Of a DNA stretch of 64,000 bases, positions 2,762 through 47,060 are shown one piece after another; position 1 is the first letter of the stretch; each line of letters starts with the position of its first letter. Location: positions 578,889-642,888 of the forward strand of contig CAVZJJ010000002.1 in the NCBI GenBank assembly GCA_963775555.1, in the 5' to 3' direction. The translations under genes were made by a program, and so were the position numbers. The stretch comes from an uncultured Bacteroidota bacterium. GTDB taxonomy: Bacteria > Bacteroidota > Bacteroidia > AKYH767-A > 2013-40CM-41-45. The notes beneath the pieces were generated by a model. The model worked only from the letters and a program-made list of their open reading frames with translations, ran no database searches and was not told where the DNA came from.

Positions 2762-4231
2762 TTATATTTTTTCAAGTACTTCCAGCAGGCGTACCATCGC
2801 CAGAGTATCCATTTTGCAATAGGCCAGAAGGTTTTGTCGGATGTCATCCTGATTTGCATTTACATCGAAAATCAGTTGTTCGAATGCAAGACTTGCAGAC
2901 GATCCATCGCCGATTTCCAGGGTATCGTAATTCAAGTCCGGAACCAGTGCAGGCAATACAGCTTTTATAGAATACGATCCATTCATGGAAGGAGTATAGT
3001 ACCATCCTTTCATAAAGGGAGGCATCAGATCTAAAAGACGATCGATGCGTTCTTCAATATCATTTTGATATTTAGGAAAATCCCGGGCAATGGCGTTGAG
3101 GATAGATTTTTCAAAACTCATGTTATAGGTGAGTATTCTGCCGGAAGATGAAGTGTTTTCCAACAGTTGTTCAATGAAAGGAATTCTGGGATCTCCTTTT
3201 GGCCGGGCTAAAAATTCAGTATGTTTCAGTGAGGCATTTTTTGTTTTTTTGAAATGCAAAGAATACTGAAATGGAATTTGCTGGTAGGGTCTGCTTTTTG
3301 AATACAATGGAATGGCAGCCTGAAAAGTTTCAAAGTCCATGAAGTACAATGGGTAAGAGAGATCTTTCAAATAGTTGCGAAGAGAGGGCCGGTCAATTGT
3401 ATTTTTCTTTTTCAAATGGCTGTCGATCTGCACCTGTTGGTATTCGTTGAGTGCCATGTCTTCAGGAAGATCTTCAAATCGCAATATTCCTTCTTCATAC
3501 AATTCAAATTTTTTGTTTGCCCGAAGGCGTGAGATAGAGAAGACTGAAGGTACAGGAATATGTTTCCAGCAATGTTCGATGAAGTCGCAGGAGTAAGGGT
3601 CTGAACAATGCGGACCAATGTCGACCACCGGTTCTTTTTTTAATTGGAGCATTGTTTTTAATTCGGAGATCTTTTCCTGAACGAAATCTTGTTGTTCAAG
3701 GGCTTCCATTTTTACGGATTCAATCGAAAATAATTCTTCGAGAACAATTGATTTTTTCCGGATGTATTCATTGTTCAGGTGAACGATAAACAGGTCGGCC
3801 AGTTCAATTCCTGACTGTGTTATAACATGGTATTGAAGGGCGGCATCAAGGATGTTCACTTCTTTAATGTTGGTTGAGCTTTTAACTTCATAAGCTTTCC
3901 AGCGTCCATTTCTTTTTACTAAAATATCTACTGCAGCCAAAACGCCATTGTATTGAAATGCCGCTTCGTAAATAATTTTTTCCCCCTGTTTAATAAGTTC
4001 CTTCGTGTATAATACAGATTTCGCATATTCGAAGGGAGTATCGGGGGATGCATCCACACCACCCGGAAAAAGGTCTCTGGCCAATTGCCCCACGGAAGTT
4101 CCCCGGTCGAAAACGGCTTGCTGTTGAGCGGATATTTCTCCTGCCAAATCGCGGCGGAATTTATAGAAATACAAACGTTTAGGGCATTGACATCCATATA
4201 AAAATGTGGATTTAGAGAGGACGTGACGCAT
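2762..4231 (-). CDS. DUF2779-type protein: N-terminal Cas4/AddB-like PD-(D/E)xK nuclease with Cys cluster, plus a C-terminal DEDD-like exonuclease-like half
   Basis: 489-aa ORF. An N-proximal Cys pair (YGCQCPKRLYF) plus C-x5-C-x5-C (HCSDPYSCDFIEHCW) bracket a D...E-x-K core (AAVDILV...KAYEVKSS). The C-terminal half carries YFMDFETF, YNMSFEKS and AYCKMDTLA, which resemble ExoI/II/III (DEDDy) motifs. The overall N-terminus matches my memory of the DUF2779 family. Confidence 0.7.
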   Translation of the reverse strand: MRHVLSKSTFLYGCQCPKRLYFYKFRRDLAGEISAQQQAVFDRGTSVGQLARDLFPGGVDASPDTPFEYAKSVLYTKELIKQGEKIIYEAAFQYNGVLAAVDILVKRNGRWKAYEVKSSTNIKEVNILDAALQYHVITQSGIELADLFIVHLNNEYIRKKSIVLEELFSIESVKMEALEQQDFVQEKISELKTMLQLKKEPVVDIGPHCSDPYSCDFIEHCWKHIPVPSVFSISRLRANKKFELYEEGILRFEDLPEDMALNEYQQVQIDSHLKKKNTIDRPSLRNYLKDLSYPLYFMDFETFQAAIPLYSKSRPYQQIPFQYSLHFKKTKNASLKHTEFLARPKGDPRIPFIEQLLENTSSSGRILTYNMSFEKSILNAIARDFPKYQNDIEERIDRLLDLMPPFMKGWYYTPSMNGSYSIKAVLPALVPDLNYDTLEIGDGSSASLAFEQLIFDVNANQDDIRQNLLAYCKMDTLAMVRLLEVLEKI

Positions 4232-4272
4232 TCGAATAAAATAAGAGTTTCAGTAAAGATAGAAGACCTGAA

Positions 4273-4289
4273 CGCAGTCTATCTGCGCA
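4273..4289 (-). promoter_or_regulatory. Operator-like motif CGCAGTCTATCTGCGCA upstream of the DUF2779 nuclease gene
   Basis: Lies 42-58 nt upstream of the nuclease ATG (4231). It matches the reverse complement of 5404-5420 at 15/17 positions, including an exact 11-mer, CTATCTGCGCA. It is internally palindromic (CGCA-N7-TGCG). An additional imperfect AGATAG half-site sits at 4257-4262. Confidence 0.45.
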
Positions 4290-4378
4290 AGGACAGGAGA
4301 AAGAAGAAAAGGAGATTTGTCTTGAAAGCACAATGCGGAGGGAGGATTGCTTCAAAAGGAGCAATTCGATGCTTGTAT

Positions 4379-5389
4379 TTATGTGGTATATTTTTTCATT
4401 GCTTTTTTGAGTGTTTCCATTATTTCGTTTTTGAGTTGCGTTGGTTTAATGACTTTCACATTTTCGCCGTAACTCAGAATTTGCATGGTCAGTTCAGTTG
4501 AAGGGATCACATCGATGCAAATTCGAAATTCCTTCTCATTGTCTTTTAGGACTTTTTGAGTATGATGGATGGGCTGTGCTTTGATATAACGGCCTTCAAG
4601 TGGACTAAAGGAAAGTTCCACTTTTACAGGAATCAGGTCGTTGACGGTAATTCCAAAAGAGTGATAAAAGAATTTTCTTGCATCAAAATCTCTTTTCTTT
4701 TCGAAGGCCATTCTGGTTATCTGCAAATCACGGATTCTGTCGAGACCGAAGGTAAGGATCCTCTCATGGATAGGTGAGTAGCCGGTGAGATACCAGCGGT
4801 TTCTGTATTCACGCACGAGATAAGGGTGCAGCTTATGTTGATTGGTTTTTTCTTTTGTATAGTTATAGTATTTAAAATGGATTTCGACATGGTCGGTGAT
4901 GGAGCGTAATATTTTTTCGAGGTGATCAGTCCCTTCGGAGTAGGAAGGTCGTTCTACCTGGATGAAGTCTGTAATTTCTGTCCCATACAAGGAGCGGCTG
5001 ATCTGAACAGCCTGCAAGAGGCGACCGATGGTGTTATCAAATTGGCGGAGAATGGGGAAGTCTTTGAATTGCCGTAAAAGACCCACGGCGAATTCCAGTG
5101 AATAGAGATCATCCTGCTTCAATGGCAACTTACTTATAGAAAAGTCGGGATCCGAATAATAATATCCTCTTCGGGTTTTATGATAGCAAATGGGAGCCTG
5201 GAAATTGAGTCCCTCATCAAAACGCATAGCATAAATGTCTTTTTGCATCGTGGATTCAGAAATTCTTTTCCCCAAAAGATCCTCACATTTTTCTGCCAGT
5301 TCTTCCAGTGTTGGAAAGGGTTTTTGCCTGTTTTTTAAAGCTTCGTCGATCAGGCGGTAACGGGTATATGCTTCTTTGTTCTTTGGCAT
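4379..5389 (-). CDS. WYL domain-containing transcriptional regulator (wHTH - WYL - WCX architecture)
   Basis: 336-aa ORF. It has an N-terminal wHTH-like segment (TRYRLIDEALKNRQKPFPTLEELAEKC), a central WYL signature (HPYLVREYRNRWYLTGY) and a C-terminal extension typical of PafC/BrxR/CapW-like regulators. Confidence 0.8.
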   Translation of the reverse strand: MPKNKEAYTRYRLIDEALKNRQKPFPTLEELAEKCEDLLGKRISESTMQKDIYAMRFDEGLNFQAPICYHKTRRGYYYSDPDFSISKLPLKQDDLYSLEFAVGLLRQFKDFPILRQFDNTIGRLLQAVQISRSLYGTEITDFIQVERPSYSEGTDHLEKILRSITDHVEIHFKYYNYTKEKTNQHKLHPYLVREYRNRWYLTGYSPIHERILTFGLDRIRDLQITRMAFEKKRDFDARKFFYHSFGITVNDLIPVKVELSFSPLEGRYIKAQPIHHTQKVLKDNEKEFRICIDVIPSTELTMQILSYGENVKVIKPTQLKNEIMETLKKAMKKYTT

Positions 5390-5403
5390 AAAATATTTAT
5401 TAG

Positions 5404-5420
5404 TGCGCAGATAGGTTGCG
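5404..5420 (-). promoter_or_regulatory. Operator-like motif (minus-strand reading CGCAACCTATCTGCGCA) upstream of the WYL regulator gene
   Basis: Ends 14 nt upstream of the WYL ATG (5389). It is a near-identical copy (15/17) of the motif at 4273-4289, in the opposite orientation, and has the same CGCA-N7-TGCG palindromic frame. Confidence 0.45.
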
Positions 5421-5864
5421 TGCCTGGGTCTGAGATTTGCAAAATGATTAATGATTGTCTTACGAACTGAATAATTCTATACAAGCACTGATTGAACGAA
5501 GATACTAAGGTTTTGTGAGAGACCTTTCGCCGGTTAGAATTCATCCCGCGAAGGAGTAGAAAATATTATTTCATATCTAAAAATCGACAGAAGAATGAAT
5601 TTACAGGGTTTCAATAAGTTTTTATCTAAAGAGTGCCGGGTGTTCCAATTCGTTGATTTTATTCTTTATTGTGGAATTCAGGACCAGCTCCAGTGTAGTG
5701 TATTCCATCCCTGCTTTTTAAGGGCGACGAAGGTTATGATGCTTTGCCAATACCCGGTTTTATTACAACCTGCAAGGGGATATACATATACGAATGCGCA
5801 AGAATGAGCGAATGAAAGGATTGTGTCAGAGGGCTAAGCCCGGCTTATATTTCGATAATTACGG

Positions 5865-5928: not shown

Positions 5929-6615
5929 TCAACGATAAGCATCCTTGTCGAGTTGTAAGCCACGTGTCCCTTTAAATCGCTGCCAGAAGGTTTCCCTTTC
6001 CATGATGGAGATAAAATCTTTGTCGAAAGCATCTTCAGAATTTATTTTCGGGTTGATCATTTTTGGTTCGAGTGAACGAAGAGTATCATATACTATTGGA
6101 ATCAGTGCTACGTCTTCACTAACCCGTTTTCTTGTAAACCGACGGAGAAGCTTTGTTTGAAATGGGTCGGAGGCAAGCGCCATTTTTCGGAACCCGAGTT
6201 TCCAGGCTTTCTTGTATGAATAGTAGATGTTTTCAGTACTATGTTCGGCTTTGGTTTCCGTGAATATATTTTCTTTCGGTATGCCAATTGCTTCAGCAAA
6301 CATTGCCATCACCTTTCCCTCGTAATATGGAGTGTATACAGCGGATCCGGAATACATGATGTTTTTGGCTATACCTTTTTCAAATAAATATTTTGACCAG
6401 TAGACTCGCGCTTTCATAGTTGGGGTCCAGGTTCCTCCTTCCAGAGGGACTCCCGGAACTACAATTATGTCGTATTGTTCAGTCATGGATTGGGTCAAAA
6501 GTTTCCTGCATGTACGCGATGTAAAAGAGCAGGACACGAAAACAAGGAAGAAAAGGCCAAGAAATATTTTTGATAATAATGACAACATAGTTTGGAGAGC
6601 AGGATGATTCAGCAA
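5929..6615 (-). CDS. YdcF/DUF218 family protein (ElyC/SanA-like), membrane-anchored
   Basis: 228-aa ORF with an N-terminal TM/signal segment. The DUF218-like core reads YDIIVVPGVPLEGG...IMYSGSAVYTPYYEGKVMA...TKAEHSTENIYYS. Confidence 0.7.
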   Translation of the reverse strand: MLNHPALQTMLSLLSKIFLGLFFLVFVSCSFTSRTCRKLLTQSMTEQYDIIVVPGVPLEGGTWTPTMKARVYWSKYLFEKGIAKNIMYSGSAVYTPYYEGKVMAMFAEAIGIPKENIFTETKAEHSTENIYYSYKKAWKLGFRKMALASDPFQTKLLRRFTRKRVSEDVALIPIVYDTLRSLEPKMINPKINSEDAFDKDFISIMERETFWQRFKGTRGLQLDKDAYR

Positions 6616-6770: not shown

Positions 6771-8039
6771 TTATTTTTTGCCGGAAGAATGATTGCGGTT
6801 GTGCTTAGGGCGGGACTTCGCCCCTTTATCACCCCCTTTATGAAAAGATCTTTTAGGGCCTTTGTTACGTCCGACTTGAGCATGTTTCTTTTTAGGGTCC
6901 CATGCGGGACCTTCTCCAATTTCAGAAGGTAAAGGAAGTTTAGGAATCTCCCTTTCGATTAATTCTTCGATCTGGGCAAAGCGGCGTTGGTCCTTCTCAT
7001 TGATGAGGGTGATGGCTTCTCCAGTTGAGGCAGCACGGGCCGTTCTTCCTACACGATGCACATAGTCTTCAGCATCACCAGGGACATCAAAGTTAATGAC
7101 CAGTCCGATATTTTCAATATCGATACCACGTGAAAGGATATCGGTAGCGACAAGAATTTTTGTATTTCTGTTTCTAAAACTTAAAAGTACGCTTTCCCTC
7201 TCTGCCTGAGTCAGGTCACTGTGAATGGCTTTTGCGGAAAGATGAACCCGAAGAAGTTCGCGTTCCAGTGCTTTTACGCCGGATTTTGTTGAAGCGAAAA
7301 TGAGTACACTGTCCAGATTTTTTTCTGTCAGAATTTTTCGGGTAAGATCAATTTTTTGTGTATCGTAAACGAGGTATGCATTTTGAAGAATGCCGGCCGC
7401 CGGTTTGCTGATAGCAATATTTACTTCGACAGGTTCTTTTAATATTCGACGTGCCAGTTCGCGCATCTTAGGAGGCATCGTTGCACTGAAGAGAAGATTT
7501 TGTTTTTTAGGAGGCAGGTATCCAATGATTCGGAGAATGTCTTCGTAAAAACCCATGTCGAGCATTTTATCTGCTTCGTCAAGAATCAAAACATCCAGTT
7601 TGTCAAATTTTACATAACCGTTATTGAGGTGGCTGAGCAATCTTCCCGGCGTGGCGATCACCACTGATGTGCCTTCGCGAAGGGCTTTTTTTTCACGTTC
7701 AAATACCTGTCCGTCACTACCGCCATAAACAGCAATAGAGCTGGCATGTGTGAAATAAGCAAAGCCCTGAAATGCATTGTCAATTTGTTGTGCCAGTTCT
7801 CTTGTAGGGGCGACGATGAGCGCTGAAGTATGCGGAATCTGATCCACAGCGATACGGTGCAAGGTAGGAAGCAGATATGCCGCTGTTTTACCGGTACCGG
7901 TTTGTGCACAAGCGATCAGGTCTTTCCCCTGAAGGATCACCGGGATTACTTGTTCCTGAATGGGAGTGGGCTTTGTGAAGCCCATGGAATCAAGTCCTTC
8001 GAGCAATGAAGGATAAAAGTTAAAATCGTCGAAAGTCAA
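6771..8039 (-). CDS. DEAD-box ATP-dependent RNA helicase with a basic C-terminal tail
   Basis: 422-aa ORF with a Q-motif region (F...PTPIQ), motif I AQTGTGKTA, motif II DEAD, motif III SAT, motif VI HRVGRTAR and a Lys/Arg/Gly-rich tail. Confidence 0.95.
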   Translation of the reverse strand: MTFDDFNFYPSLLEGLDSMGFTKPTPIQEQVIPVILQGKDLIACAQTGTGKTAAYLLPTLHRIAVDQIPHTSALIVAPTRELAQQIDNAFQGFAYFTHASSIAVYGGSDGQVFEREKKALREGTSVVIATPGRLLSHLNNGYVKFDKLDVLILDEADKMLDMGFYEDILRIIGYLPPKKQNLLFSATMPPKMRELARRILKEPVEVNIAISKPAAGILQNAYLVYDTQKIDLTRKILTEKNLDSVLIFASTKSGVKALERELLRVHLSAKAIHSDLTQAERESVLLSFRNRNTKILVATDILSRGIDIENIGLVINFDVPGDAEDYVHRVGRTARAASTGEAITLINEKDQRRFAQIEELIEREIPKLPLPSEIGEGPAWDPKKKHAQVGRNKGPKRSFHKGGDKGAKSRPKHNRNHSSGKK

Positions 8040-10689: not shown

Positions 10690-13521
10690 ATGGCTTCTGA
10701 TAAAAAACTATTCCTTCTGGATGCGATGGCATTAATTTACCGGGCCTATTTCGCTTTCAGCAATAATCACCGGATCAATTCCAAGGGACAGAATACCTCC
10801 GCGGTATTTGGATTTACGAATACATTGCTGGAAGTGTTGCGGAAGGAACAGCCATCACATATTGCGGTTGTTTTTGATACAATGGCACCAACATCCCGCC
10901 ATGAAGAGTTTACTGATTACAAAGCCAATCGACAGGAGATTCCGGAAGACCTGGCCGCATCAATTCCTGTGGTTGTGAAATTGTGTGAAGCATTTCGTAT
11001 TCCGGTTCTGGCAATGGATGGCTATGAAGCCGATGATGTGATAGGAACTCTTGCCATTGAAGCAGAGAAAAAAGGTTTTGACACCTACATGATGACTCCT
11101 GATAAGGATTTCGGACAATTGGTTGATGAACATACTTTCATCTATAAGCCGGCAAGAAGTGGTTCCGGTGCGGAGGTTCTTGGTGTAAAAGAAATTTGTG
11201 CACGCTGGGAGATTACAAATGTGGATCAGGTGAAGGATATTCTGGGATTAATGGGAGACAGTGTCGATAATATTCCGGGAATACCGGGTGTAGGAGAGAA
11301 GACGGCGATTTCATTAATCAAACAATTTGGTTCCATCGAAAACCTGCTTGAACATACTGATCAGCTAAAGGGAAAGCTTAAAGAAAAAGTCGAAGCAAAT
11401 AAAGAGAAAGCCATTCAATCTAAATGGCTGGCTACAATTATTACTGATGTACCTGTTTCTCTGGATCTGGAAGAACTAAAAACACAAGAAGCTGACAGGC
11501 AAGCATTGCAGGAACTTTTTTCGGAACTTGAATTCCGGCGCCTCGCTGAACAATTAAATCTAGGAACTATTGAAAAAAAACCCGAGCTGAAGCGTACGGA
11601 GAAATCAAAGAAAATTATTTCTTCTCAGGCCACCTTGTTTGGTACTGATGGTGATGATGAAGAACAGAGTTTTGAAGAAGAACCGGAATCTCCTCCTGTT
11701 ACTGCTTTGAATTCTATAACAGAGGTGGCACATCGTTATGAATTAGTTGATACTGCAGAGAAGCGCATCAAACTTATACGCTTTCTTTCAGGACAGAAAA
11801 TTTTCAGCTTCGATACTGAAACCACCGGATTGGATGCTCATACAGCGGAGCTTGTTGGCCTGTCATTTTCAGCGGGGGAACATGAGGCATATTATGTTCC
11901 GGTTCCGGCAGATCAGAAAGAAGCGGGAAAACTAGCGGCTGAGTTTAAAGAGGTTTTTTCTCGGGAAGACATAATTAAAATCGCGCAGAACCTGAAATAT
12001 GATTTTTCTGTTTTACGGAGATATGGAATTGAATTCAAGGGGGTACTTTTTGATACGATGATTTCTCATTTTCTCATACGTCCGGAGATGCGTCATTCCA
12101 TGAATGTCCTGGCAGAAACCTATTTGAACTATTCGCCCGTTTCGATTGAAAGTCTAATTGGCAAACGCGGCAAGGATCAACTGAACATGCGTGATGTGCC
12201 TGTTGAAATTATCAAGGAGTACGCAGCGGAAGACGCGGATGTGACCTTTCAACTTTATAAAGTTTTCGAACCCAAATTGAAAAATTCAGGAACAGAAAAA
12301 TTATTTTATGAAGTTGAAATGCCATTGGTCCCTGTGCTTTCCGCCATGGAGTCGGAAGGAATAAACCTTGATAAAAACGCTTTGAGTATTTTATCCAAAG
12401 AACTCACGGAAGATATCAACCGGGCGGATCGGGAGATTCAGGATCTTGCCGGTGAACCATTTAATATTTCATCTCCGAAACAGGTGGGAGAGATATTATT
12501 TAACAAATTAAAGATTACCGATAAACCATCGAAAACGAAGACAGGACAATTTTCCACCGGGGAAGATGTGCTGAGCAAACTTGAAAATAAGCATCCCATT
12601 GTAAGACGAATTCTGGACTACCGCGAGTTGGTAAAATTAAAGAACACCTATGTTGATGTGTTACCAACTCTTGTCAATCCTCAGACAGGACGAATCCATA
12701 CTACCTTTAATCAGATAGTAGCAGTTACGGGACGATTGAGTTCTGACAATCCGAATTTGCAGAACATCCCGATACGTACGGAAAGGGGACGCGAAATCCG
12801 AAAAGCATTTGTACCTCGAAGTGAAGATTTCCTACTGCTCTCTGCGGATTATTCGCAAATTGAATTGCGGGTAATTGCGGAGCTCAGCCAGGACAAGGGG
12901 ATGCTGGATGCATTCATCAGTGGCGAAGACATTCACGCGGCTACCGCAGCGAAAGTCTATGGTGTATCCATAAAGGACGTAAATTCCGATATGCGACGTA
13001 ATGCGAAGATGGTCAACTTCGGAATCATTTATGGAATTTCCGCTTTCGGACTCGCCGATCGATTGAATATTTCCCGAACGGAGGCCAAAGAAATCATTGA
13101 TAATTATTTTATTCAATATCCGGGCATCAAAGACTATATGGATCTCAGCATTGAAAAGGCAAAGAAGAAGGGATTTGTAGAAACGATCATGGGCAGGCGC
13201 CGTTATCTTCGTGATATAAATTCGGCGAATGCTACAGTAAGAGGATTTGCGGAGCGGAATGCCATTAATGCCCCTATACAGGGAAGCGCTGCCGATATGA
13301 TTAAGATTGCGATGATCCGCATTGCGGATGAAATGGAGAAAAGAAAAATGAAATCAAAGATGCTTTTGCAGGTGCATGATGAATTGGTTTTTGACGCGCA
13401 TAAATCCGAGTTGGAGGATTTAAAAGTGCTCGTTGAAGACAAAATGAAAAATGCGATTCCTTTAAAAGTACCGGTAGAGGTCGGTATTGGGTCAGGAAAG
13501 AACTGGCTGGAGGCGCACTAA
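10690..13521 (+). CDS. polA: DNA polymerase I
   Basis: 943-aa ORF. It has a 5'-nuclease N-terminus (LFLLDAMALIYRAYFA), a 3'-5' exo domain (FSFDTETTGLD), polymerase motif A (LLSADYSQIELRV), motif B (RRNAKMVNFGIIYG) and motif C (QVHDELVF). Confidence 0.97.
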   Translation: MASDKKLFLLDAMALIYRAYFAFSNNHRINSKGQNTSAVFGFTNTLLEVLRKEQPSHIAVVFDTMAPTSRHEEFTDYKANRQEIPEDLAASIPVVVKLCEAFRIPVLAMDGYEADDVIGTLAIEAEKKGFDTYMMTPDKDFGQLVDEHTFIYKPARSGSGAEVLGVKEICARWEITNVDQVKDILGLMGDSVDNIPGIPGVGEKTAISLIKQFGSIENLLEHTDQLKGKLKEKVEANKEKAIQSKWLATIITDVPVSLDLEELKTQEADRQALQELFSELEFRRLAEQLNLGTIEKKPELKRTEKSKKIISSQATLFGTDGDDEEQSFEEEPESPPVTALNSITEVAHRYELVDTAEKRIKLIRFLSGQKIFSFDTETTGLDAHTAELVGLSFSAGEHEAYYVPVPADQKEAGKLAAEFKEVFSREDIIKIAQNLKYDFSVLRRYGIEFKGVLFDTMISHFLIRPEMRHSMNVLAETYLNYSPVSIESLIGKRGKDQLNMRDVPVEIIKEYAAEDADVTFQLYKVFEPKLKNSGTEKLFYEVEMPLVPVLSAMESEGINLDKNALSILSKELTEDINRADREIQDLAGEPFNISSPKQVGEILFNKLKITDKPSKTKTGQFSTGEDVLSKLENKHPIVRRILDYRELVKLKNTYVDVLPTLVNPQTGRIHTTFNQIVAVTGRLSSDNPNLQNIPIRTERGREIRKAFVPRSEDFLLLSADYSQIELRVIAELSQDKGMLDAFISGEDIHAATAAKVYGVSIKDVNSDMRRNAKMVNFGIIYGISAFGLADRLNISRTEAKEIIDNYFIQYPGIKDYMDLSIEKAKKKGFVETIMGRRRYLRDINSANATVRGFAERNAINAPIQGSAADMIKIAMIRIADEMEKRKMKSKMLLQVHDELVFDAHKSELEDLKVLVEDKMKNAIPLKVPVEVGIGSGKNWLEAH

Positions 13522-40621: not shown

Positions 40622-42109
40622 ATGGTGAATGAAATATTTTTAACCAATTCTTTGAGCCGTAAAAAGGAAAAGTTTGTTCCTCTTGTACCTGGCTTTGTAG
40701 GGATGTATGTGTGTGGCCCTACTGTCTACGGTGCACCCCATTTGGGACATGCTCGACCATATATCACATTCGATGTAGTCAATCGTTTTTTTAGTCACCT
40801 CGGTTATCGGGTTAGATATGTTCGCAACATTACTGATGTAGGACATTTGGTTGATGATGCCGACGAAGGGGAAGATAAGATTGCAAAGAGAGCACGTATC
40901 GAAAAACTTGAACCGATGGAAGTGGTGGAGCTTTATACCGGAATGTTCCATGATGCAATGCAGGCATTGAACAATAATCCTGTAAGCATCGAACCACGTG
41001 CCTCCGGACATATCATTGAGCAGATCGATATGATTCAAAAAATCATGGATAATGGTTGGGCTTATGTATCCAATGGATCGGTTTATTTTAATGTGGTAAA
41101 ATACAGTAAGACCCATGATTATGGAAAGCTTAGTGGAAGAGTTATCGAAGAGTCTGATTGCCGGTGCCGGAAATGAACGACGTGAACTGGAAGGACAAGC
41201 AGAAAAACAAAATCCAGCTGATTTTGCATTGTGGAAAAAAGCATCTCCGGAACATATCATGCATTGGCCTTCTCCCTGGAGTGAAGGTTTTCCCGGATGG
41301 CATATTGAATGTTCTGCGATGAGTACCAAATATCTCGGTGAAACTTTTGATATTCATGGCGGAGGCATGGACCTGCTTATTTCCTCACCACGAAAGTGAG
41401 ATTGCTCAATCGAAAGGTGCCTGTGGAAATGCCCCTGTGCGATACTGGATACATAACAATATGATAACCATCAACGGACAAAAGATGGGTAAATCACTCG
41501 GGAATTTTATTAATCTGGATGATTTCTTTACCGGAAACCATCCTTTGTTGGAGCAGGCATACTCTCCTATGACGGTTCGTTTTTTCATTCTGCAGGCTCA
41601 TTACCGCAGTACACTTGATTTTAGTAATGATGGATTAAAAGCTGCTGAAAAAGGATTGAACGAAACTTATGAATGCTGCATGCGGTACTTCAGAAATTAA
41701 AAACTTCTGAGAAATCTACTTCCGATATTCCTGCATTACGAAAGGCATGCTTCGAATGCCATGTCTGACGATATCAATACTGCTATTACAATTGCACATT
41801 TGTTTGAAGCTGTTCGAATTATTAATTCTGTACATGCGGGAACAGAAACCATTTCAACAACGGATCGTGAACTTGCTAAAACAAACATATCGGGAATTTG
41901 TATTTGATATTCTTGGATTAAAGCAGGATAATAATGACAATAATGCGGACGCTGATACACTGATGAAATTTATTATGTCACTGCGAACGGATGCAAAATC
42001 TAAAAAGGATTTCTCGACATCAGATAAAATTAGGGATGAATTGGCTTCTCTCGGTTTTAAAATCAAGGATGAAAAAGATGGAACAATGACCTGGGCCAAG
42101 AATAATTAA
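40622..42109 (+). pseudogene. cysS: Cysteine--tRNA ligase, disrupted by at least 3 frameshifts
   Basis: There are four consecutive + strand fragments in different frames: [18 protein letters not shown] (HIGH), [20 protein letters not shown], and KMGKSLGN (KMSKS). The C-terminal DALR-like tail reaches 42109. Confidence 0.92.
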
Positions 42110-42154
42110 TCGTATATATTTAAAAAATCAATATTTATTATTTCAGTTACAGTC

Positions 42155-43184
42155 ATGAATAACGACCGTTCAGTACGAAGTATTCATACAACACTTTGTC
42201 TTGGAATCTGATGTTGTTCACCTTGTTATTTTTGGCTTGTGTTCATCGTCCGACAAAGCACCGGAAAGCACAGCGCCGGAATGGCAGAATAACAAAGTTG
42301 CACCCTCAGTTATCGTACCTTATTCAGTGAAGATTCTGCTACCTGTTTGTGAAAGCAGCAGTGTGACTTTGGTCCGCGTGTACCTAATACAAAAGCACAT
42401 GCCTGTGCCGATTACTTGAGTTCTAGTTAAAGGGATATACATCTTCTGTGATTGTTCAGAAGGGGACGTGAAGACCTACAATGGCAGTTAGTCTCAATTT
42501 CAAAAATATTATTGCTGAGTTTAATCCGGAGAAGTAATCAACGAGTCTTACTATTTGCACATTGGGATACACGACCATGGGCGGATCAATGACACAGATC
42601 GTCCGACTGAACCAAGTCTGGGTGCAGATGACGGAGCGAGTGGCGTGGCTGTACTTCTGGAAATTGCACGACAGTTTTCATCGTAGGCACCCTCCATTGG
42701 GGTTGATATTATTTTCTTCGACGCGGAAGATTGGGGAAAAAGCGATGGTGGAGCTGAATCAGTAGACTCTTATTGTCTCGGCACACAATACTGGACAAAA
42801 AACCTACACACGCCGGGTTATGTCGCTAATTACGGAATTCTGTTGGATATGGTAGGTGGTAGAAATTCAGGTTTCAGAATGGAAGTATAATTCAAGACAA
42901 TTTGCATCTCTGTTCTTGATAATGTATGGAAAACCGGAGTGAATCATGGGTACTCGGGATATTTCATTTTTCAGGATGGCGGATGGATTACCGACGATCA
43001 TGTTTATGTGAATCAAATAAATATTCCAAGCATAGATATCATTGCAAGTGCCAACGGTTGAGCAAAGAGGCTTTCCTACTCATTGGCATACACATGAGAT
43101 AATATGGACATCATTGACAAAGGAACGTTAAAAGCTGTGGGACAAACCGTATTGCATGTGGTTTATTCGGAGAGAGGAAATTGA
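42155..43184 (+). pseudogene. M28 family peptidase / glutaminyl-cyclase-like protein, heavily frameshifted
   Basis: Manual multi-frame reading gives FNADSAYLFVKAQCDFGPRVPNT..., NIIAEFNPEK, HWDTRPWAD, GADDGASGVAVLLEIARQF, IGVDIIFFDAEDWG, DSYCLGTQYW and ITDDHVYVNQ. No single ORF exceeds ~70 aa. Confidence 0.6.
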
Positions 43185-43275
43185 GCAGAATATTCCCGGA
43201 ATAAGCAATAGAGCTAAGAGATTGACACAACCGTTAAATAGTTTTGGAATTCAGTGCAATTCAATAATTTCCACT

Positions 43276-44818
43276 TCAGGAACCTTTAGCAGTATTAAGT
43301 TGAATATGTTTCTGATGCGCCTTTGATTTAAATTCCTGAAAAATTTCCAAGTACATCTCGTCAATATAATCGCTTTTTGTACCATCAATCACCACGATGG
43401 AATATTCCGGAATTTTATCAAGCATCTCTATAAATCTTTTTTTGCTTAAAAAACTCACATTCATTGCCAGTTCAATGGTGAAGTGTTGGTTATGGCCTTC
43501 TGTTTTTTGTGAAATCGTGATAGCCTGCAAGATAGGTGTGTTTAATGACTATAGTAAATGGCGTGGACTATTCCGATAATACGCCGATAAGCAAATCTGT
43601 AAAGAGTATGGCAACGACAGTTACGAGGAAAGGTAAAAATTGTTCTCGGCCTTGTTTGTAGATGCCGGCAATCATCTTTGGTTTCACGAGGTTATATCCG
43701 GTTCGTAATAATATAACAGCCAGCACACAATAGGGAATCAGGTTGATGAGATGGGATGGCCAAGCTTATCGCCAATAAATATCCAGATGCCATGAAAGAA
43801 TGCGGATAGATTTTGTTTTCGCCTTTGCTTCAGCATTTGCTGAACTTCGCACAATTACAGCTGTGATTGGCAATCCTCCTAACAATGCCACTCAGAAAAT
43901 TTCCTGTTCCCTGTGCAATGAGTTCATTGTTCTGTGGAGAAATTCTATTGTATGGATCTAGTTTGTCAATGGCTGCCAGACTCAGGAGTGTTTCCAGTGA
44001 TGCGACAAAGCAAATGATTATTCCGGTTCTCCATATCGTCTGACATGACTGAAAAGCAGGTTAAATTGGGAGCTTATTTGAGAAAAATATTTTGCGGAAT
44101 GGAAACAAATTGGGTGGATGCCAGCTGGATAGGAGGGAAAATAGTATTTCAGAATCATGCTTCTGATATTCCGACCAGGACAACGACCAGAAATGAAGCC
44201 GGTATGAAGGAAAGTTTTGTTGCCAATGTTCTTTTCCACCAGATAAGAAATGCCATGGATCATAATGAGATGATAATGGCTCCGGCTGAAGTATGATAAT
44301 ATAGATCATGTACATTTCTGAATGCGTGATTAAATGTCAGGATATTGAAAAATTCATTCGTCCAGAATTCAGGCTTGTCATATCCGATGAGCGGTGGAAT
44401 TTGTTTGGAGATTAAAATAATTCCGATGGCAGAGAGCATTCCTTTTATCACTGAGGATGGAATAAAATGTGTAAAGCCTCCAAGTTTTAATATTCCAAGA
44501 ATTATTTGCATTAGCTCCGGCTACGGAAACTGAAAGAAAGAAAATTTCCAATAGCACCCAATTGCGTGATTGCAGTTGCACAAATCGCTGTTAGTCCTGC
44601 AGCCGGACCGCTTACACTTAAAGGTGATTTGCTAAAGAGAGTTACGATGAACCTCCAATAATTCCGGCAATGAGTCCGGAATAGATAGGTGCATTGGACG
44701 CAAGAGCAACGCCGAGGCAAAGCGGCAGTGCAACAAAAAAAACGGTTATGCTTGCTTTAAAGTCGTGCTTGAGAAAAGAGAGGAAATAAAATCTTGTTTT
44801 TCTACTGAAGATGCTCAT
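43276..44818 (-). pseudogene. SulP family anion transporter with a C-terminal STAS domain, multiple frameshifts
   Basis: Fragments are 44511..44720 (SPLSVSGPAAGLTAI), 44260..44511 ([27 protein letters not shown]) and 43276..43530 (STAS-like: FLSKKRFIEMLDKIPEYSIVVIDGTKSDYID). The start [24 protein letters not shown] was read manually at 44818. Confidence 0.75.
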
Positions 44819-45133
44819 GTGAGGTGTAAAGTTGGGAAAATTATTCGGGTAAGAAATTGCTGCTTAATTGGATAATTATCAACGTAATATATTAAAGCAA
44901 AGCAAGAAAGGCTTATTAAAATTGATCTTGAGTAAGGGTAAATGGCTTTGTCAGTGATATTTAGCAAATATCTTCCGTCATTTCTTGGAAGATTTCAGCT
45001 TAAAATAAACCGTAATGGATCTCCACACTTTGTGAAAATCTTGTATTCCATTTCAATGTAAGCTTCGGGCTAATTCGTGGTTCCCTTTGTCGTTGACCAT
45101 CGTATGTTTGAATATTAATATAACCACACACAC

Positions 45134-45656
45134 ATGAAAAAAATCTTTACACTCATTCGCTATTCTTATTACTTTAATTTTATTTCAGGTGTCACTTGCA
45201 CATGCCCAGTACACCACCGGGGTTGGTCTACGAGTCGGGAAATTTGCAGCAGGAGTTGACGTCAAACATTTCTTGGACGCCAATGGAAATACAGGATTTG
45301 AATTAATGGCCGGAATTACCCGTGAAGCAAAAGGAGGCTATATCGCATTTAAAGGATATTTTGTAAAGCAACTTCCAATACTAAATTCATTGTTGAGAAT
45401 TCCTATAGACATTGTTTTTGGAATCGGGGCTCATGCCAGTTATTTCAAATATGATTATTATACCATAAAAGAAGGGCATCCTGTATTTCTATAAGGATCA
45501 GACGATTGCAGCCGGATGGATGCAATGTTCGGACTGGAATATGATACCCGAAAAGTTCCTTTCACGATAACTATCGATGCAAATCCTTTTTACAGTCTCA
45601 TAAATCCGGGACCTGAATGGATCGATTTCGGTATAACCGGGAGATTAAAATTCTAG
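45134..45656 (+). pseudogene. Small putative outer-membrane beta-barrel protein, frameshifted
   Basis: MKKIFTLI... signal peptide, then the 45189..45494 ORF (AQYTTGVGLRVGKFAAGVDVKHF...). It continues in another frame to ...IDFGITGRLKF* (aromatic terminus). Confidence 0.45.
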
Positions 45657-45671
45657 AAAGGTTGCAGGATA

Positions 45672-47060
45672 TTAAAACTCTGCATTCTTAGGTGTACGTG
45701 GAAATGGAATGACATCGCGGATGTTTGTCATTCCTGTAACGAAAAGCATCAGCCTCTCAAAACCTAAGTCCGAAGCCGGCATGTTCACAGGTACCGAATT
45801 TTCTTGTCTCCAGATACCACCATAAGTCTTCTTCGTGAATTTTCATTTCATGAATTCGTTGCTAGAAGTTTGTCATAGTTTTCTTCCCTCTGTGATCCAC
45901 CGATGATTTCTCCAATCCATGGAAATAAAATATCCATGGCACGAACAGTTTTGCCGTCTTCATTTTGCTTCATGTAAAAGGATTTGATCTCCTTTGGGTA
46001 ATCAGATAGTATAACCGGACGGCTAAAATGTTCCACTAGAAAATTTTCGTGTTCTTTTTGTAGGTCCGTTCCCCAGCTTACAGGAAATTCAAATTTTTTC
46101 GTTGATTTGGACAGTACGTCTATAGCTTCAGTATAGGTAAGTCTTTGAAATGGATTCAGCGACGACAGATTGTAAGTCGGTTCAATAATTCTTTGTCGTA
46201 TAGATTATTAAGAAACTCAAGATCATCTTTGCAATGTTCCAGTGCATAAGCGAATCAGATACTTTAAAAAGTCTTCAGCCAGATCCATGTTATCTTTCAG
46301 ATTATAGAAGGCCATCTCAGGTTCTATCATCCAGAATTCAGCAAGGTGACGCGGCGTGTTCGAATTCTCTGCACGAAAAGTCGGACCGAAAGTATATACC
46401 AGTCCCAGAGCCATCGCACCTAATTCACCTTCCAGTTGCCCGGATACCGTCAGGTTGGTTGACTTACCAAAAAAATCTTCCTTGAAATTTACTGTTCCAT
46501 CTGGATTACGGGGAATCTTATCAAGATCGAGAGTGGTTACCTTGGAACATTTCACCTGCACCTTCAGCATCCGATCCGGTGATGATCGGTGAGTGAAGAT
46601 TGAAAAAGCCCCGGTCATTAAAATATTTATGAATGGCAAAAGTCATGTGATGACGCATGCGTAATACCGCTCCAAAAGTGTTTGTGCGTGGACGCAGGTG
46701 TGCAATCTCTCGTAGAAATTCCAGCGAGTGACCTTTCTTTTGCAATGGATAAGTTTCATCGGCAGTACCCAAAACTTCAATACTCTGCTGCTTGTATCTC
46801 CACACTCTGACCCTGACCTTGGGAGGCACAATTTTCCTTTCACGGAAATGCAGGCTCCGGTGGTTATTGTTTTCATCAGCTCTTCGTCGAATTTTTCAAT
46901 TTCAGCAACTACCTGAATGGAATGTATGATAGAGCCATCATTGATAGCAATGAATGCTATTTGTTTGTTGCCGCGTCGGGTACGTACCCATCCCTGCAAA
47001 AACACATCGATATCCTGTCTCTTTGAATGTTAAAAGGTCAACGACCCGTCTTGATTTCAT
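45672..47060 (-). pseudogene. asnS: Asparagine--tRNA ligase, disrupted by at least 5 frameshifts
   Basis: Minus-strand fragments are [21 protein letters not shown] (OB fold), [40 protein letters not shown] (motif 1 region), [28 protein letters not shown] (motif 2) and [16 protein letters not shown]. The manually read C-terminus is ...[30 protein letters not shown]. Confidence 0.9.

Follow-up and report, generated by a model that had tools for sequence, protein, structure and literature searches.

Among bacterial transcription regulators that join a winged helix-turn-helix (wHTH) to WYL and WCX domains, DriD, PafBC, SiwR and CapW all bind single-stranded DNA (ssDNA) (PMC9186387, PMC11804915, PMC10693628, PMC11662680), and every WYL regulator so far tested for ssDNA sensing is positive. 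DriD, the WYL activator of an SOS-independent damage response in Caulobacter crescentus, has the nucleases bapE and recJ among its targets; the autoregulatory site of driD ends 10 nt before its own start codon (PMC9186387), and the sites at its target promoters extend over the -35 position, with a constant distance to -10 (PMC13004042). In mycobacteria, PafBC and SiwR are ssDNA-induced activators; SiwR acts on genes next to its own, with binding at the -26 region (PMC10693628). CapW and BrxR are repressors of CBASS, BREX and other defence operons. The DUF2779 (PF11074) family has been described in parallel: in 2014 it was assigned, within the RNase H-like superfamily, to the clade of 3'-5' exonucleases and found fused to a DUF83 PD-(D/E)XK domain (Majorek 2014, PMC3985635), and its JCVI-syn3.0 member MMSYN1_0389 was reported as a quasi-essential Cas4-like plus DEDDy protein that keeps only two of four cysteines and whose best HHpred match is the mitomycin-repair exonuclease MrfB (mSphere 2026, PMC13621843). 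The present work concerns a 64,000-nucleotide stretch of an uncultured Bacteroidota genome (GCA_963775555.1, contig CAVZJJ010000002.1, positions 578,889 to 642,888; hereafter the window), in which a WYL regulator gene is followed by a DUF2779 gene:

4379..5389, minus strand: WYL-family transcription regulator gene, 336 residues (probable wHTH, helical linker, WYL, WCX), from the open reading frame (ORF) and Pfam
2762..4231, minus strand: DUF2779 dual-nuclease gene, 489 residues, from the ORF and Pfam PF11074

The ORF coordinates bear out what an earlier inspection of the DNA letters (the original prediction) had claimed, namely two co-directional minus-strand genes 147 bp apart, the spacer running from 4232 to 4378. 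At a probability of roughly 0.6, we read the pair as an autoregulated, PafBC/DriD-like WYL switch that raises expression of the DUF2779 nuclease upon DNA damage, sensed as ssDNA, via two operators. In this chromosomal two-gene unit the regulator would be a homodimer-type wHTH-WYL-WCX factor related to PafBC and DriD. It would bind a 17-18 bp inverted repeat, RCGCA-N7-YGCGY, just before its own start codon, leading to autoregulation, and a second copy at the DUF2779 promoter, over the -33 position and at a constant 10-nt distance to the -7 box. A signal derived from nucleic acid, most likely ssDNA arising from damage, would be bound by the WYL and WCX domains and alter either DNA binding or the recruitment of RNA polymerase, whereupon nuclease expression would rise. 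During repair, the two nuclease halves may then act together at DNA ends or flaps and trim back both strands, the relatives of the Cas4/RecB-like half being 5'-3' or flap nucleases and the other half being of the DEDDy 3'-5' type.

The connection between the two genes is drawn from the following putative elements:

4272..4289, plus strand: operator at the nuclease promoter, ACGCAGTCTATCTGCGCA, reverse-complement relative to the gene, inverted repeat RCGCA-N7-YGCGY
5404..5421, minus strand: operator at the promoter of the regulator gene itself, ACGCAACCTATCTGCGCA, with its end 14 nt ahead of the ATG (orthologs: 14-16 nt)
4254..4261, minus strand: Bacteroidetes-type -7 box, TATCTTTA in the window, exactly 10 nt downstream of the operator
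5435..5459, minus strand: conserved block (conserved alignment columns) upstream of the regulator's operator, GACAATCATTAATCATTTTGCAAAT, likely the regulator's core promoter

The 18-bp site has just two matches in the window, against 0.01 expected by chance, and the two copies point oppositely relative to their genes. A 17-bp motif shared by the upstream regions of both genes had already been noted in the original prediction and is indeed present, with the upstream site ending at 5421, one base past the end coordinate given at that time. Phylogenetic footprinting was performed on the window and nine related loci whose nucleases are 65-78% identical to that of the window (L001, found in the genome scan, and L081-L091, found by exact-protein and metagenome look-ups). 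Both sites are kept in all of these loci while the flanking intergenic DNA diverges. The regulator-side site is nearly invariant across orthologs (ACGCAAYCTATYTGCGY), and at the nuclease-side site the half-sites are kept with a more variable spacer. The segment at 4254-4261, which we take to be the -7 box on the basis of the Bacteroidetes promoter consensus, is a perfect TAnnTTTG in 6/8 distinct sequences, and the operator lies 10 nt from it in all eight. As the operator ends exactly 10 nt before the -7 box, it covers the position of the -33 element. Because the same conserved site precedes both genes, the regulator most likely controls the nuclease, and its binding to both operators is what the sequence comparison suggests. 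As far as the searched literature shows, this regulatory link and the operators are new.

The arrangement is similar to that of DriD with regard to the probable wHTH-WYL-WCX architecture, the inverted-repeat operator, a nuclease gene as presumed target, the position of the target site in the -35-equivalent position at a fixed distance from the -10 equivalent, and the additional site at the regulator's own promoter near the start codon. It differs from DriD in phylum, in promoter type (Bacteroidetes -33/-7 in the window) and in operator sequence, and apart from the regulator's own gene a single target is visible here. DUF2779 promoters in loci devoid of a WYL gene displayed a recognisable -7 box in just 14 of 75 cases, and TTTG at -33 in one. 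A scan for sigma-70-type promoters and terminators gave no excess over shuffled controls, with a model that is unsuited to Bacteroidetes promoters.

In Pfam searches the 336-residue regulator scored 51.7 bits for WYL and 39.8 bits for WCX (cut-offs 21.8 and 23.9, respectively), and no HTH family was found in its N-terminal 110 residues at E-values up to 10. Profile-profile alignment with hhalign paired residues 13-80 with the HTH_11-bearing region of a 286-residue WYL clade from Ignavibacteria (Prob 98.5 for the full-length alignment, which takes in the HTH region). The regulator had been called a complete wHTH-WYL-extension protein; the WYL and extension parts of that description stand on scores above the cut-offs, whereas the wHTH is a probable one, supported by profile-profile alignment and Pfam-negative. 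When a profile of the regulator clade was compared with solved structures, matches over WYL plus WCX were obtained for PafBC (6sj9, 2e-16), PafB (7p5x, 1e-13) and DriD (7tzv and 8tp8, ~1e-12), while CapW (7tb5, 2e-5) and BrxR (7qfz and 7t8k, 1e-4 to 7e-3) were matched over the WYL domain only. By these profile scores PafBC and DriD, both damage activators, are nearer to the regulator than are the defence repressors BrxR and CapW. Still, PafBC, albeit the best match among solved structures, is a heterodimer or fused tandem that acts by sigma adaptation, whereas the window regulator is a single 336-residue protein, and the target gene family differs from those of both PafBC and SiwR. With SiwR it shares the placement of the presumed target next to the regulator gene. 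CapW and BrxR have the same domain order and also regulate an adjacent operon, and CapW senses ssDNA, but their similarity to the window regulator is much weaker and no defence system adjoins the window pair.

The residues that contact ssDNA were mapped via HMMER alignments, with numbering validated against both source papers. Conserved contacts are Y174 (DriD Y168), Y200 (DriD Y192/PafB Y196), F214 (DriD W206) and R218 (PafB R214); the arginine of DriD R178/PafB R181 is not conserved, H185 being found at this position. By analogy with the characterised relatives, ssDNA is the most likely ligand, although not an assured one.

The second protein is predicted to combine two nuclease halves:

3542..4231, minus strand: N-terminal Cas4/RecB-like PD-(D/E)xK half, ~residues 1-230 (C16, C209, C215, C221, D102, E115, K117, Q133)
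2765..3364, minus strand: C-terminal RNase H-like, DEDDy-type 3'-5' exonuclease half, ~residues 290-489 (D299, E301, N370, E374, D401, Y471, D475)

The Pfam DUF2779 model was matched over its full length at residues 296-421 (146.9 bits, cut-off 23.3). Cas_Cas4 (PF01930) scored 19.4 bits, under the gathering score of 22.7, with many homologs carrying precomputed PF01930 matches; the PADLOC Cas4 model covered residues 15-223 at E 6.8e-9, and the match to RNase_H_2 of Pfam was weak (E 0.011). The motifs listed in the original prediction (four Cys, D...EVK, DFE, YNMSFE and YCKMD) are all present, as C16, D102...E115-V-K117, C209-x5-C215-x5-C221, D299-F-E301, Y369-N-M-S-F-E374 and Y471-C-K-M-D475, and the named residues are invariant across 23 homologs. 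In a wider alignment of 138 sequences (137 cluster representatives, 34-54% identical to the window protein) the named catalytic and Cys residues are kept in at least 134/138: D102, E115, K117, Q133, C16, C209, C215 and C221 in at least 136, and D299, E301, E374, Y471 and D475 in 134-137, with N370 in 99. A loss of the D/E/K and DEDD residues, which would have spoken against two nuclease domains, is thus not what the alignment displays. The Exo I D-x-E, Exo II N-x3-(D/E) and Exo III Y-x3-D motifs are all conserved, the Exo II acid being Glu instead of Asp, and D401 is a further invariant acidic residue of the C-terminal half.

Comparison of the nuclease with the PDB by single sequence and by profile gave nothing useful, and fold comparison alone worked. 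An AlphaFold2 model of the whole protein reached a predicted local distance difference test score (pLDDT) of 92.1, and Foldseek matched it to solved structures of Cas4 (4r5q, the best, E 1.5e-4, probability 1.00), MGME1 and the Cas4 part of Cas4-Cas1 (7mi5). A separate model of residues 284-489 (pLDDT 95.4) matched DEDDh exonucleases best, with 3'hExo (1w0h, E 9.7e-4, probability 0.97) followed by ERI2 and DnaQ (8h18). As the template modelling scores of these matches are just 0.37-0.45, the C-terminal half is to be seen as a divergent member of the DEDD fold. The models and the alignments support both nuclease folds and their catalytic residues, for which a structure comparison had been proposed, and the nuclease is best described as a Cas4/RecB-like PD-(D/E)xK half with a predicted Fe-S Cys set joined to a DEDDy-type exonuclease half. 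This two-nuclease architecture was already known, by computation, from the 2014 and 2026 studies. The earlier statement that DUF2779 has no assigned function holds: the literature mentioning DUF2779 reports no experimentally tested function, but the architecture had been published.

With Cas4, AddB and MGME1 the protein shares a RecB-like core (D...E-x-K and a Q-x3-Y-like motif) bracketed by four Cys, and its two halves, of predicted opposite polarity within a single protein, recall AddAB. The usual Cas4-type cysteine spacing is C-x2-C-x5-C, whereas that of the window protein is C-x5-C-x5-C; furthermore, unlike the Cas4 and AddAB systems, the window nuclease is found without a helicase domain, cas genes or a CRISPR array, and its Pfam Cas4 score lies below the cut-off. 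The Mollicute proteins of the MMSYN1_0389/UU173 type belong to the same Pfam family, are also Cas4-like plus DEDDy and also carry Tyr in place of His (PMC13621843). They are longer and have two of the four Cys, all of which are kept in the window protein; the NCBIfam UU173 model matches the latter weakly (58.8 bits, cut-off 225), and no WYL partner is reported for them. The family as a whole comprises 13,226 clusters at 50% identity (E 0.001 or better). In some members DUF2779 is joined to large additional regions, or the match falls into two distinct parts: P0488 (1403 residues), P0425 (868), P0415 (811), and P0400 and P0372 (~650). A phage collection of 50,697 records yielded six partial DUF2779 matches at 15% coverage, all in predicted Helicobacter phages, and a phage origin of the nuclease is unsupported by these.

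The distribution of the pairing was surveyed in the 80 best species-level DUF2779 loci, with 48-65% identity to the window nuclease. A WYL gene adjoins DUF2779 in five of these, co-directionally in L001, L022 and L036 and divergently in L002 and L040, and the five adjacencies come from about four independent lineages. This is well above a chance expectation of ~0.1 in 80, itself a rough estimate of our own that assumes a genome of ~4000 genes with a few WYL genes. A Pfam scan of 73 upstream neighbours of DUF2779 revealed no other recurrent partner. Close relatives (nuclease identity at least 65%, nine distinct loci) all keep the pair, and DUF2779 follows WYL homologs of at least 79% identity in 5/5 cases. 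At 36-47% WYL identity (75 metagenome loci), one locus had DUF2779 within 5 kb, and in this wider clade no recurrent nuclease was seen, the neighbours being an outer-membrane barrel, a lipid A acyltransferase, TPR proteins, type IX secretion system (T9SS) proteins and redoxins. The pair is conserved in one lineage and otherwise sporadic. An absence of the adjacency from related genomes had been named as a possible objection to the module; it does not apply to the close relatives, although it does to most species-level loci.

Between the divergent WYL and DUF2779 genes of one of the five loci (L002:4060-4125), a near-perfect palindrome with 20-bp arms was observed, CGCAAAGGCGCAAAGAACGC ... GCGTTCTTTGCGCCTTTGCG, which may serve as one operator for both genes or form a hairpin.

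The two Ignavibacteria loci, L022 and L036, encode the 286-residue WYL protein mentioned above, which is distantly related to that of the window (phmmer 1e-6 to 1e-9). Here a different site, AAGCGTATC-N4/5-GATGATA, precedes the WYL gene and, as its reverse complement, DUF2779. Because this clade repeats the layout with an operator of its own, two WYL clades appear to have put DUF2779 under a two-site arrangement. Six further clade members (L167-L172) were collected; in 4/6 a divergently transcribed operon of ARPP-1 (PF20208) and a ~300-residue protein is present, and the downstream gene varies, being a NERD nuclease in L167, SbcD-SbcC in L172, SpoVG in L168 and DUF6804 in L169, while in L170 a 613-residue DUF2779 protein is encoded at the end of the ARPP-1 operon. 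A palindrome, GTATCA-N4-TGATAC, occurs in the divergent region and also before DUF2779 and, in L172, before sbcD. Judged by gene order, DUF2779 takes the same slot in this clade as the classical DNA-end nuclease SbcCD. One could go further and regard WYL plus DUF2779 as a recurrently assembled, ssDNA-triggered module for DNA-end processing in Bacteroidota and Ignavibacteriota, functionally interchangeable with WYL-controlled SbcCD or NERD, but this extension is doubtful. A literature search for ARPP-1/PF20208 returned unrelated papers only. Two further observations were made in these loci: L167 adjoins BrxC/PglY, and in L022 the ARPP-1 operon and the WYL gene are separated by an inserted Fic/DOC plus HTH_17 gene (3901-4926), with the operator-bearing GCGTATCATATGATGATA on both sides of the insert (L022:3606 and L022:4958).

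These data also bear on whether regulator and nuclease are merely chance neighbours, with the adjacency reflecting lineage synteny and the repeated motif serving the regulator alone or another factor. Adjacency among close relatives is confined to one lineage, regulator relatives at 37-47% identity have unrelated neighbours, and the motif-bearing loci are all orthologous; for this last reason conserved adjacency alone does not count as independent evidence. Chance, however, does not readily account for a nuclease-side inverted repeat that holds its 10-nt distance to the -7 box in an otherwise diverged spacer, nor for its match to the site at the regulator's own promoter. Moreover, the two-site layout with DUF2779 recurs in a second WYL clade, from another phylum, and adjacency exceeds the roughly estimated expectation in the survey. 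Mere coincidence is accordingly rated as very improbable.

Several points nevertheless weigh against the proposed damage-responsive switch. PafB R211/DriD R207, one of a pair of arginines that PafB needs to bind ssDNA, is Gly/Ala in the clade (G215 in the window protein), and DriD R204/PafB R208 is Leu (L212), so that the regulator departs from both DriD and PafB at these positions; because the equivalents of PafB R211 and R208 are lost, the ligand may differ from ssDNA. A WYL regulator that senses c-di-GMP is on record (PMC11880434). The position of the nuclease-side operator would suit a repressor that occludes -33 as well as an activator, but it is a robust prediction that ssDNA would raise nuclease expression in either mode. 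In structure comparison the C-terminal half is matched best by RNA exonucleases (3'hExo/ERI1, ERI2 and ERI3), and its substrate may be RNA. Finally, pairing is rare across the DUF2779 family, and since just 5/80 loci are paired, the window pair says little on the role of DUF2779 in most organisms.

Some of these points would fit a signal or substrate other than DNA, with the WYL protein sensing RNA or a cyclic dinucleotide and the nuclease taking part in RNA or oligonucleotide turnover, e.g. through 3' trimming by the ERI-like half. WYL1 of type VI-D CRISPR systems, an RNA-binding WYL protein, is in line with this, as are the replaced arginine, the matches to 3'hExo, ERI2 and ERI3, the c-di-GMP-binding precedent, and a Mycoplasma bovis DUF2779 transposon mutant, recovered in a screen that also yielded mutants of nanoRNase and c-di-AMP phosphodiesterase. 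Conversely, the N-terminal half is of the Cas4/MGME1 DNA nuclease type and its predicted Fe-S cysteines are conserved, published HHpred analysis puts the DNA-repair exonuclease MrfB nearest to the C-terminal half (PMC13621843), and all characterised nearest relatives of the regulator bind ssDNA. On this balance an RNA or nucleotide pathway appears unlikely, and a DNA-damage switch remains the preferred reading.

The surroundings of the pair are relevant for a role in defence. The neighbouring genes encode a T9SS-sorted immunoglobulin (Ig)-repeat protein (413-2707), DUF218 (5929-6615), a DEAD-box helicase (6771-8039) and PolA (10690-13521), and the order DUF218, WYL, DUF2779, T9SS protein, response regulator, prolyl isomerase is repeated in all orthologous loci. 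The G+C content of the locus is uniform with its surroundings. No tandem repeat or CRISPR array was found in the 64-kb window, no cas gene among the scanned neighbours, and neither an adjoining recognised defence system nor mobile elements at the locus; PADLOC returned generic Cas4 and WYL models only. The locus is a case of housekeeping synteny and no defence island.

An anti-phage module would here consist of a BrxR/CapW-type WYL repressor that holds a toxic nuclease off until ssDNA appears during infection, after which the nuclease would degrade invading or host DNA. The PADLOC models that match the two proteins are CRISPR-associated ones, and CapW and BrxR are wHTH-WYL-WCX repressors of defence operons, of which CapW senses ssDNA (PMC11662680). 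In addition, the Ignavibacteria WYL clade that pairs with DUF2779 adjoins the conflict-system gene ARPP-1, one member lies near BrxC/PglY and the nuclease cargo varies between NERD, SbcCD and DUF2779, while among the 80 surveyed loci HsdM, AbiEi, HipA or an integrase is an occasional upstream neighbour. Set against this are the stable synteny of the window locus, with a DEAD-box helicase and PolA nearby, its matching G+C and the lack of a CRISPR array in the window. DUF2779 genes are also mostly stand-alone, with 13,226 clusters in the family and 75/80 loci without an adjacent WYL gene, the family is quasi-essential in JCVI-syn3.0 (PMC13621843) and almost absent from phage records, and the regulator is nearer PafBC/DriD than BrxR/CapW. 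An anti-phage function is in our view improbable. The original prediction had proposed a WYL-switched nuclease module for defence or repair; the module is supported by both folds, the shared footprinted operator and the independent Ignavibacteria pair, and defence emerges as the weaker of the two roles.

Upstream of the regulator, the 539-bp gap between the DUF218 and WYL genes holds a conserved element of ~150 nt (5617-5770, plus strand), a candidate structured RNA, divergent from and antisense to the WYL gene, with a closing helix CCGGGU/ACCCGG followed by a U-run. Its folding energy is -25.6 kcal/mol on the plus strand and -12.9 on the other strand, and compensatory changes were found at 19/35 base pairs; 88.9% of cells are paired compared to at most 50% in slid controls, and 0/500 shuffles reach the observed covariation. 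The element overlaps a mechanically called ORF of 70 residues (5595-5807) that is not conserved as coding sequence, and since its indels are not multiples of three it is not coding. No Rfam match was obtained in scans of the region or of the whole 64-kb window, where no family reached the gathering score and no known RNA gene or riboswitch was seen (no tRNA scan with ARAGORN was made). A covariance model finds the element only in 11 orthologous loci, and for that reason its link to WYL-DUF2779 is inseparable from synteny; it could be a further component of the module.

Elsewhere in the window, a 4.6-kb stretch (42100-46700) lacks any ORF of at least 110 residues, and its minus strand (42.1-46.7 kb) carries fragments, spread over several frames, of two genes, one for a SulP-type transporter (STAS domain included) and one for an Asn-tRNA synthetase. 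The fragmentation of these two genes probably stems from assembly indel errors and not from pseudogene formation; the WYL and DUF2779 genes themselves are full length, as in their orthologs.

In combination, the locus represents a new pairing of known parts, a WYL regulator with an adjacent damage-response gene, and no new kind of system. It adds a Bacteroidota example to the WYL-controlled damage responses, with a geometry that mirrors DriD despite the -33/-7 promoters, in a setting, Bacteroidota and Ignavibacteriota, where the DNA-damage response is poorly defined. DUF2779 is a large family, conserved down to the minimal Mollicutes, and the operator pair ties one of its members to a PafBC/DriD-like sensor. 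It follows as a specific prediction that DNA damage or ssDNA induces expression, and this could help to assign a role to the whole DUF2779 family. If the more doubtful reading of a recurrently assembled WYL-DUF2779 module were true, it would offer a first way into the physiology of these 13,000 clusters, whose minimal-cell member is quasi-essential.

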